Shown here piece by piece: positions 46,537-49,839 of a stretch of DNA of 64,000 nt. Origin of the DNA: Chiloscyllium plagiosum. Taxonomy: Eukaryota. The position numbers and the translations under genes were made by a program. The DNA is taken from the NCBI RefSeq assembly GCF_004010195.1, contig NC_057753.1, positions 13,071,446-13,135,445 on the forward strand, in the 5' to 3' direction. Every line of letters starts with the position of its first letter. The first letter of the stretch is position 1. The notes beneath the pieces were generated by a model that was not told the DNA's origin, did not search any database, and saw nothing but the letters and a program-made list of their open reading frames with translations.

Positions 46537-46954
46537 ATGGACATGAGAATGAGTTTTTTTTTTTTGCTCTTGGTTCTATTTTAAGGAAGTGCTGCGAATT
46601 TGGTTTAGTTCACTCGTTCATTTAATCACCGATTTCTGCTTTCTATTACCTTTTGTTCCAGATTTGAACGAAGCAGATTCTGTAACCCAGCGGCAGATTT
46701 CGCTCACACAGACAGAGGGATAAGAAATCTCTTTACACTGCACCTACTGGTAATGATTATTACTTGTTCTGGTACCCGGGCAGACAGCGCGAGTTCACAA
46801 TCCAGAGGCACACGAGCCGTGTTGCTGAAAAGGTGGCGGTTTTCGGTCGGAACTGCTTTTCTGATACAGTCCAGCAGACAGAGAAGTACCACCGATTCAC
46901 CATCTCAAGGCTGGTGCTGTCTGACACCGCGGTTTTTTACTGTGCAACGAGCTT
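46537..46954 (+). pseudogene. TCR alpha/delta V pseudogene (leader remnant + V exon 46662-46954), inverted orientation
   Basis: Acceptor ttgttccAG; DSVTQRQISLTQTEG*(TAA 46721)EISLHCTY, frameshift, YYLFWYPGRQREFTIQRH..FTISRLVLSDTAVFYCATS. Heptamer CACACTG at 46955-46961 with a decayed nonamer. Leader MDMRMSFF.. has its donor mutated to GGAAGT. Confidence 0.88.
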
Positions 46955-48500: not shown

Positions 48501-48539
48501 AGTTTTTGTACGAGGCTTCCTCTGGGTACTGTCACTGTG
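48501..48539 (-). other. Recombination signal sequence, 23-bp spacer
   Basis: CACAGTG-acagtacccagaggaagcctcgt-ACAAAAACT. Confidence 0.97.
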
Positions 48540-49073
48540 TCTTTCAGTCCGCAGTAATACACCGCGCTGTCAGACAGCTGCAGCTCACCAATGGTGAAAT
48601 TGCCTTCACTGTTCGAAGTGTCCAGAGACGATGAAAATCGAGTCCCCACTCCGTCTGCTCTGAAAGGATCTCCATAGTTAGGGATGTATATCAAGAATGT
48701 GAGAGCTTTTCCGTGGTACTGACGATACAGCTGTAAGGAGTATGACGTCGATTTGGTCGAGTATCTGAAATTAATGGTCACTGAGTTTCCTTCGAATACT
48801 TTTGTTGCAGTCAGCTCTTGTGAAATCCAGTCTGCACAATTAACACCTGAAACAAAATTGAAAAGCAACAACCATTAAGTTTCACATTCACGTTTTAACC
48901 AAATAATGTCAACAAGGCGCGAAAATACATCGCAAATACAAAGGAAACAGTAGTTATATGGAATGTCACCATGTATTAACATTATCAATTATCAACAACA
49001 TTTTCAACTTCTTGTACATACCAGTTAAGAATGCTGCACATGTCATCAATGCATAAAATGTAACACGCAACAT
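48540..49073 (-). CDS. TRAV: TCR alpha(/delta) V gene segment, open: leader exon 49022-49073, V exon 48540-48846; non-canonical Phe23/Leu41
   Basis: Leader MLRVTFYALMTCAAFLT-G with GTATGT donor and tttcAG acceptor. V reads GVNCADWISQELTATKVFEGNSVTINFRYSTKSTSYSLQLYRQYHGKALTFLIYIPNYG..RFSSSLD..GNFTIGELQLSDSAVYYCGLK, with a canonical 23-RSS. Confidence 0.93.
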
Positions 49074-49800
49074 GTTTGCCCAGCAAATGGTGAGTTTGAA
49101 CAGTAGGAACTGGAACTGAATTATCTCTGCTCTGTGGGAGGATTGAGCACTACGAAATGAAGTTAAGGGACTTGAACAGTTGATATTCTGTCATATCCTG
49201 TCTTACTGCCGACTGGTTCTTTCACATAAGCGTCGTCAGGCACCATCCAATCAGCTCAAGGCATTTCGTTCTCCTGTCTTGATGTCAGAGAGCGGTTCAG
49301 CAACACTTCGAATGTGCTCCACGATTTAATTAGACCATGATTCGCCACCAAGCATTCATTGTGCAACACAACTCCCAAACATATATTTTTCCTTGAAGAC
49401 ACACTAACCTATCAAAATAATTGAGAAAGAAATTCAAAGACAGTGCAATAGCTCCTCTTCTGGTGTACTGAATATAAGTAAAATAGGTATTTAATCTAAT
49501 TATGGGCGTTTTACCGGGGACAGTCTTTAATCTCAATCATTGATGTGTGATAGCTCATGTCCTTATCGTAACAGTGCCCTAGCTCGCCATTAAGAGTGTT
49601 GCTTGCCAAGTACGAACAACACTTAAAACCAAACTAAGGAGGGATTTAGTGCAGAACACAAACATGAAGTTCAGAAGGAAATCATTCACAATAGCTGACC
49701 TTTGTAGTTTGTATTTGAATGTATTAAGAGCTTACAATAGTGCTCATAGATCTGTTTGTGTGTGTGCATTGCGGGTGGGGTAGATTAAGATTGCTTTGTC

Positions 49801-49839
49801 GGTTTTTGTCCAGAGTTTCAGTGACTTTCTGTCAGTGTG
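49801..49839 (-). other. Recombination signal sequence, 23-bp spacer
   Basis: CACACTG-acagaaagtcactgaaactctgg-ACAAAAACC. Confidence 0.93.

Follow-up and report, generated by a model that had tools for sequence, protein, structure and literature searches.

The window analysed here, 64,000 nucleotides of the Chiloscyllium plagiosum genome, contains a TRAV10-like TCR alpha/delta V gene on the minus strand; its exons, signals and changed residues are listed in Table 1. The original prediction held that its leader, splice sites, YYC motif and canonical 23-RSS are all intact, and this is borne out by the coordinates, the open frame and contigs that skip the leader intron. At the strict setting there are five RSS-like sites in the 64-kb window, and the 23-RSS of the V gene is one of them. 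The Pfam V-set profile PF07686 matches the V region (E 1.1e-10, 42.1 bits; cut-off 26).

Table 1. Features of the V gene, with window coordinates
Feature	Position	Strand	Remarks
5' untranslated stretch	49074..49131	-	Spliced contigs: X3 to 49131, X2 to 49126, X1 to 49120
Leader exon (L-part1)	49022..49073	-	ATG, 17 codons + one base, GT donor; spliced to V exon in X1, X2 and X3 contigs
Leader intron, 175 nt, GT...AG	48847..49021	-	Skipped in contigs of X1, X2 and X3
V exon (L-part2 + V region), open frame, TRAV10-like TCR alpha/delta V	48540..48846	-	V-set fold matched and predicted
Phe at IMGT 23 (TTC), replaces the first cysteine; motif TINFRY	48767..48769	-	Phe in 10/11 open members
Leu at IMGT 41 (CTG), replaces the conserved tryptophan; motif LQLYRQ	48728..48730	-	Leu in 11/11 open members
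Gly at IMGT 87 (GGC), may make room for Phe23	48602..48604	-	Gly in 11/11 open members
Phe at IMGT 89 (TTC), may fill the space of Trp41	48596..48598	-	Phe in 11/11 open members
Cys104 (TGC), motif YYC, usual partner gone	48551..48553	-	Cys in 11/11 open members
23-RSS	48501..48539	-	Heptamer CACAGTG 48539-48533, 23-nt spacer, nonamer ACAAAAACT 48509-48501

The replacement of Cys23 by Phe and of Trp41 by Leu, also part of the original prediction, stands. The register of the two residues is fixed by an alignment with solved V domains, which puts Cys and Trp at positions 23 and 41 of the V gene, by the V-set profile match, and by the 134-row alignment A2, in which columns 23 and 41 are at least 90% Cys and Trp. 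Cys104 is the sole cysteine of the V domain encoded by this gene (P0001). Measured against the IMGT rules as quoted in PMC8559430, the gene has the open frame, leader, splice sites, 23-nt-spacer RSS, hydrophobic residue 89 (Phe) and Cys104, and fails at 1st-CYS 23 (Phe) and CONSERVED-TRP 41 (Leu). An error of assembly, or one confined to this gene, is ruled out: both codons are kept in the DNA-like run X6 and in contigs X1-X5, and 10/11 open paralogues share both changes.

The window has further V-like pieces. An intact canonical V with Cys23, Trp41, Cys104, leader and 23-RSS is found ~2.4 kb upstream of the V gene, at 51744-51449 (-) with its RSS from 51448; it forms a long branch in the tree. 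Four of the six V-like pieces are broken; these remnants lie at 50056-49844 (-), 46746-46946 (+), 39425-39279 (-) and 1794-1612 (-). In the first of them the 23-RSS at 49839 is still good, and a partner like it adjoins another member of the family, L004, which suggests that V genes were duplicated in pairs. A 317-codon open frame resembling a single-exon seven-transmembrane receptor is also found among the V genes, at 25595-24645 (-).

A search of the genome gives 69 V matches, 65 of which are on contig C44 at 12.3-14.5 Mb. At this locus 51 of the 65, the V gene included, are on the strand opposite the J array, and most joins in the locus would thus take place by inversion. In the C. punctatum locus, tabulated by coordinates without sequences, many J-proximal Vs are likewise on the minus strand and the nearest Js on the plus strand (PMC10322711); because opposite V and J strands occur there too, a scaffolding flip in the present assembly is disfavoured.

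The best 30 of the 69 matches were retrieved, and 22 of these (L001-L020, L022 and L028) belong to the same family as the V gene, which puts the family at 22 or more members in the genome. In eleven (L001-L011) the V frame is open and both leader and 23-RSS are present; the other 11 of the 22 are broken. In the open members Cys104 is encoded by TGC and TGT, and Leu41 by CTG, TTG and CTA. One open member carries Ser at 103. Three closely related open members (L004, L007 and L009) have a GC donor after the leader exon rather than GT. The one exception at position 23 is L008 (G000:C44:12767998-12768282), an open member which has Cys23 (TGT) together with Leu41, Gly87 and Phe89. It is nested among the Phe23 members in a quick tree; a tree with L008 outside them has a likelihood 5.4 lnL higher (p 0.62). 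By its sequence L008 may be either a revertant or a surviving intermediate.

In the 11 open members dN/dS comes to 0.28 over the framework (codon bootstrap 0.19-0.41) and to 0.61 over CDR1+2 (0.38-0.97); both are averaged pairwise counts on genes chosen as open, so the ratios are biased low. Framework dS separating the V gene from its paralogues spans 0.30 to 1.16. Amino acids kept over such silent divergence are inconsistent with neutral decay, and judged by these ratios the family is under purifying selection.

Transcription and joining were followed in sequencing runs. No run is recorded as RNA; RNA nature was judged from the contigs. Joins are found in X1, X3, X4 and X5, which come from three studies and two organism labels, X4 and X5 being one sample. 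Each of the four has a contig covering V (6, 0, 3 and 2 differences respectively, no gaps), and the leader intron is skipped in X1 and X3, and likewise in X2, which belongs to a fourth study. The X3 contig has one differing base at the splice junction (window 48845-49022) which would turn a leader Gly into Asp; it could be an allele, a mutation or an error. In the joined contigs V sequence stops at 48544-48539 and J sequence takes over. In 4/4 runs the 30 letters of the loose end, judged by eye, stay in frame with V up to a (K/Q)-L-(I/T)-F-G motif. In-frame joining is weaker evidence than four out of four implies, because two of the joins fit a 4-nt TGAA microhomology which itself sets the frame. 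Decay of mRNA could be another enricher of in-frame forms, and the joins are no proof of a folded chain. In the single-cell runs X9 and X10, of which ~2% and ~6% were covered, 0 reads fall on the gene, too small a sample to count either way.

The J segments used can be placed in the genome. A 15-nt J motif has 21 of its 29 matches on C44 at 14.62-14.69 Mb. In the 200 kb examined the final filter leaves 110 distinct J segments, of which 109 lie past a C1-set exon at ~14.569 Mb; the array is on C44 at 14.59-14.69 Mb. From the layout, we infer that the C1-set exon is C-delta. By eye, each loose end corresponds to a different germline J: 14638396 (X5), 14652826 (X4), 14656832 (X1), and 14639100 or 14690232 (X3). 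The in-frame VJ transcripts looked for on the strength of the original prediction therefore exist, with joins to four J-alpha segments, and the V gene is a TCR alpha V by use: its place is within the TCR alpha/delta locus and its joins are to J-alpha segments. The C-alpha exon was not found by a motif scan of 200 kb (21,714 bases of it N), and a search for a longer protein found none out of 115 candidates. Pfam PF09291 likewise picked up no C-alpha in the genome, and gave no signal in any control either. Other loose ends read by eye as L002-, L003- and L008-like, so that several family members, apparently including the Cys23 member, appear to be transcribed.

The nurse shark family to which the original prediction pointed exists, and was described as TRAV10 by Ott et al. 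2018 (PMC5931798). The source data of that paper hold 447 TCR-alpha clones, 45 of them TRA V10; these were obtained by amplification between a V10 leader primer and a C-alpha reverse primer, a design which shows the nurse shark family spliced to C-alpha and by which 45/447 is not a frequency (PMC5931798). By motif counts the TRA V10 clones have T-I-S-Y (Tyr23) in 43/45, Q-L-Y-R (Leu41) in 43/45 and YYCG in 42/45, and two aV10.2 rows have Phe23 and Phe41 by eye (PMC5931798). The V gene resembles nurse shark TRAV10 in having no Cys23, Leu41 within LQLYRQ, FLIYIPNYG, EGNFTI (which holds Gly87 and Phe89) and YYCG; identity is ~64% (62/97, by eye), and membership rests on the motifs and this identity (PMC5931798). 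It differs in having Phe23, where aV10.1 has Tyr, and in the size of its family: two putative V10 segments are given for nurse shark, against 11 open members in C. plagiosum (PMC5931798). In C. punctatum, the family members P0002 and P0004 have Phe/Leu and Phe/Val at 23/41. Comparison of the two residues across species thus yields relatives in both sharks which also have neither Cys23 nor Trp41.

These sequences bear on three further possibilities. An invariant, NKT- or MAIT-like receptor finds no support, since the four joins use four Js and the 45 nurse shark clones hold 29 unique CDR3-J combinations (PMC5931798). Somatic hypermutation could in principle restore Cys23 or Trp41 in surviving cells: TTC and TAC are each one base from TGC, and nurse shark TCR-alpha, with TRAV10 among its V families, is reported to hypermutate (PMC5931798). 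We consider such repair extremely improbable, as it is contradicted by the unchanged codons: none of the five contigs of the V gene (X1-X5) differs at codon 23 or 41, and the motif counts above, with Phe23/Phe41 in the other two clones, show neither residue regained (PMC5931798). It should be noted that the DNA-like run X6 has two differences in common with X4 and X5; being present in a DNA-like run, these are alleles and not hypermutation.

The third possibility is a family that rearranges and is transcribed without yielding a working receptor, with T cells rescued by a later rearrangement or a second allele. Half of the copies (11/22) are broken, the IMGT rules quoted in PMC8559430 demand Cys23 and Trp41, and the evidence of use is from transcripts. 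Against this stand the low framework dN/dS over dS of up to ~1.2, a signature common to two shark genera as well as this genome, and mutated clonal groups of 4 and 9 sequences in the hypermutated nurse shark TRAV10 (PMC5931798); broken copies, moreover, are normal at this locus, as the V-like pieces of the window illustrate. A family without a working receptor is therefore very unlikely. The original prediction favoured a functional TCR V over a decaying gene, and the state of the gene, its transcripts and the selection on it support this. Related sharks that kept Cys23 and Trp41, and a V absent from productive rearrangements, were named as signs to the contrary; the relatives have neither residue, and the V occurs in in-frame V-J joins.

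The rarity of the pattern was assessed in a survey of 394 complete V domains in 266 proteins, made after 109 partial domains had been set aside. Cys/Trp/Cys at 23, 41 and 104 is found in 345 domains and Tyr/Trp/Cys in 16. Loss of Cys23 and Trp41 with Cys104 kept is found in only three of the 394, namely the V gene and the two C. punctatum proteins. No family member was found among 21 chimaera-labelled proteins, which is weak evidence of absence.

Other V domains without a conserved cysteine are known. Salmonid TRAV1 has Tyr for Cys23, is present in other teleosts and is productively rearranged; PMC8559430 reports no further structural peculiarity for it. Teleost TRAV1 and the shark family are both TCR-alpha V subgroups that lack Cys23, persist in more than one species and take part in productive rearrangements (PMC8559430). 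They differ in the rest of the core: the 16 teleost-type Tyr23 domains all keep Trp41, with Val, Ile or Leu at 87 and Leu or Met at 89, whereas the V gene has Leu41, Gly87 and Phe89. A first FastTree with a single teleost row placed it beside the shark family (0.84), but this adjacency vanished when the 16 teleost-type rows and their nearest canonical neighbours were included. A 65-row tree built without columns 23 and 41 (95 columns) unites the shark family in a single clade (SH-aLRT 98) and places the 16 Tyr23 domains with Cys23 Vs of bony-fish type (99). Forcing the shark family and teleost Tyr23 domains into one clade is 26.3 lnL worse, with an AU p of 0.067 on these 95 columns, which does not reject a common origin. 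Independent loss of Cys23 in the shark and teleost lines is favoured by these trees. Nested among the teleost-type Tyr23 domains is a Cys23 domain (P0223, residues 242-323), which is possibly a reversion like L008.

Among antibodies, ABPC48 is a natural example with one conserved cysteine missing (PMC5734687). Like the V gene, the ABPC48 VH and an engineered disulfide-free scFv are V domains which lack a conserved cysteine and work; they are, however, a single antibody or engineered variants, as opposed to a germline family, and loss of Trp41 goes unmentioned in the available text of PMC5734687. The canonical TRAV/TRDV genes of the same locus (window 51744-51449; L021, L023-L027, L029 and L030) share the layout, 23-RSS and V-set fold of the V gene. 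Canonical Vs of the same genome have Cys23, Trp41 and Leu89 in 11/11; the V gene has none of the three.

In a V domain, residue 87 faces residue 23 across the B-E pair and residue 89 packs on residue 41; both 87 and 89 are inward-facing positions of the E strand. Gly87, fixed in the open members of the family, is found in none of the 11 canonical Vs of the same genome and in 22/336 canonical domains. Position 89, Phe throughout the open members, is Leu in 336/345 canonical domains. The two residues occur jointly in 11/11 open members against 1/345 canonical domains. By the geometry above, the loss at 23 and the loss at 41 would each be matched by a change in a neighbouring residue. The original prediction read Cys-to-Phe and Trp-to-Leu as compensated repacking of the core; judged from these residue patterns the reading is plausible, and would now extend to the fixed Gly87 and Phe89. 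Gly87 does not require Phe23, since L008 pairs it with Cys23. Added up over 11 core positions, residue volume comes to 1735 +/- 23 cubic angstroms in the Phe23 members and 1753 +/- 58 in canonical domains, against 1895 in the teleost-type Tyr23 domains; at the four positions 23, 41, 87 and 89 these 16 Tyr23/Trp41 domains are ~100 cubic angstroms larger. The volume argument is weak, because the larger-cored teleost domains belong to a subgroup in use.

In structure prediction by AlphaFold, a deep alignment, mostly of canonical domains, leads to a V-set strand pattern with a pLDDT of 94.5; with family rows alone the five models reach 79.5, 78.0, 60.7, 43.6 and 41.4, two of them confident and the best again of V-set pattern. 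The top fold matches of the model are V domains, and its strands are in V-set order. The predicted model is thus compatible with a V-set fold; AlphaFold confidence says nothing on stability.

A chain that works with a less stable domain has to be weighed. Such a domain would be held by V-beta and C-alpha, and Gly87 and Phe89 would be family traits rather than compensation. The teleost Tyr23 domains speak for it, as they keep Val/Ile87 and Leu/Met89 with a larger core and are nonetheless found in productive rearrangements (PMC8559430), as do ABPC48, which lacks one conserved cysteine (PMC5734687), and L008, which has Gly87 and Phe89 alongside Cys23. The joint fixation of Gly87 and Phe89 in diverged members, so rare among canonical domains, argues in the other direction, and the pair is also visible by eye in nurse shark TRAV10 rows (PMC5931798). 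On balance we regard a less stable domain as unlikely, and hold it probable, on the strength of the sequence comparisons and the model, that a domain without the B-F disulfide folds around a repacked core.

The fate of Cys104 is a related question. An L-part2 Cys, two residues before the first Asp, is present in all 11 open members alongside Cys104. A rewired disulfide might therefore be proposed, in which Cys104 bonds this leader-end Cys, a beta-chain Cys or a ligand. The leader-end Cys, however, is at -1 of a Val-x-Cys signal-peptidase site, and a Cys at -1 of such a site would depart with the leader; Cys104 itself occupies a buried F-strand position, and P0001 offers no other Cys. Rewiring thus seems highly improbable. 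Cys104 is likely to be a buried free thiol, since the sole other nearby Cys would be cleaved off with the leader.

The best explanation is that the V gene is a rearranging, transcribed shark TCR-alpha V of a conserved family, which probably forms a normal V-set sandwich without the B-F disulfide and with a repacked core. Gly87 would clear space for the aromatic ring at 23, Phe89 would occupy the space vacated by Trp41, and Cys104 would remain buried with its thiol free. The chain would pair with TCR-beta as part of the ordinary alpha-beta repertoire with its junctional diversity. As the J array is on the other strand, the join would be made by inversion over ~1.5 Mb.

No published discussion of a shark TCR V without both Cys23 and Trp41 was found; figures and several central shark TCR papers were outside the search, and an earlier remark is possible. 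The available main text of PMC5931798 does not contain 'tryptophan' or 'disulfide', and has 'cysteine' twice, both in a primer table. The surprise is tempered in that the nurse shark sequences were published in 2018 (PMC5931798) and Cys23-less TRAV is known in teleosts (PMC8559430).

As a design for a V domain without the disulfide the family is natural and open to testing, and it bears on the stability of the Ig fold and on antibodies intended to fold in the cytosol. It is conceivable, though doubtful, that Phe/Tyr23, Leu41, Gly87 and Phe89 are a selected and portable second solution to the V core, which would be as stable as the disulfide-tryptophan pin, would fold under reducing conditions and could be grafted onto antibody or TCR V domains for use inside cells. 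The presence of Cys23, Trp41 and Cys104 commonly serves as the test of whether an antigen-receptor V works. Under the IMGT rules that PMC8559430 quotes, the V gene would be filed as an ORF, despite TRAV-like rearrangement and transcription. The test can thus misfile working shark genes as ORFs or pseudogenes: this family drops two of the three residues, yet has 11 open copies and joins to many Js.
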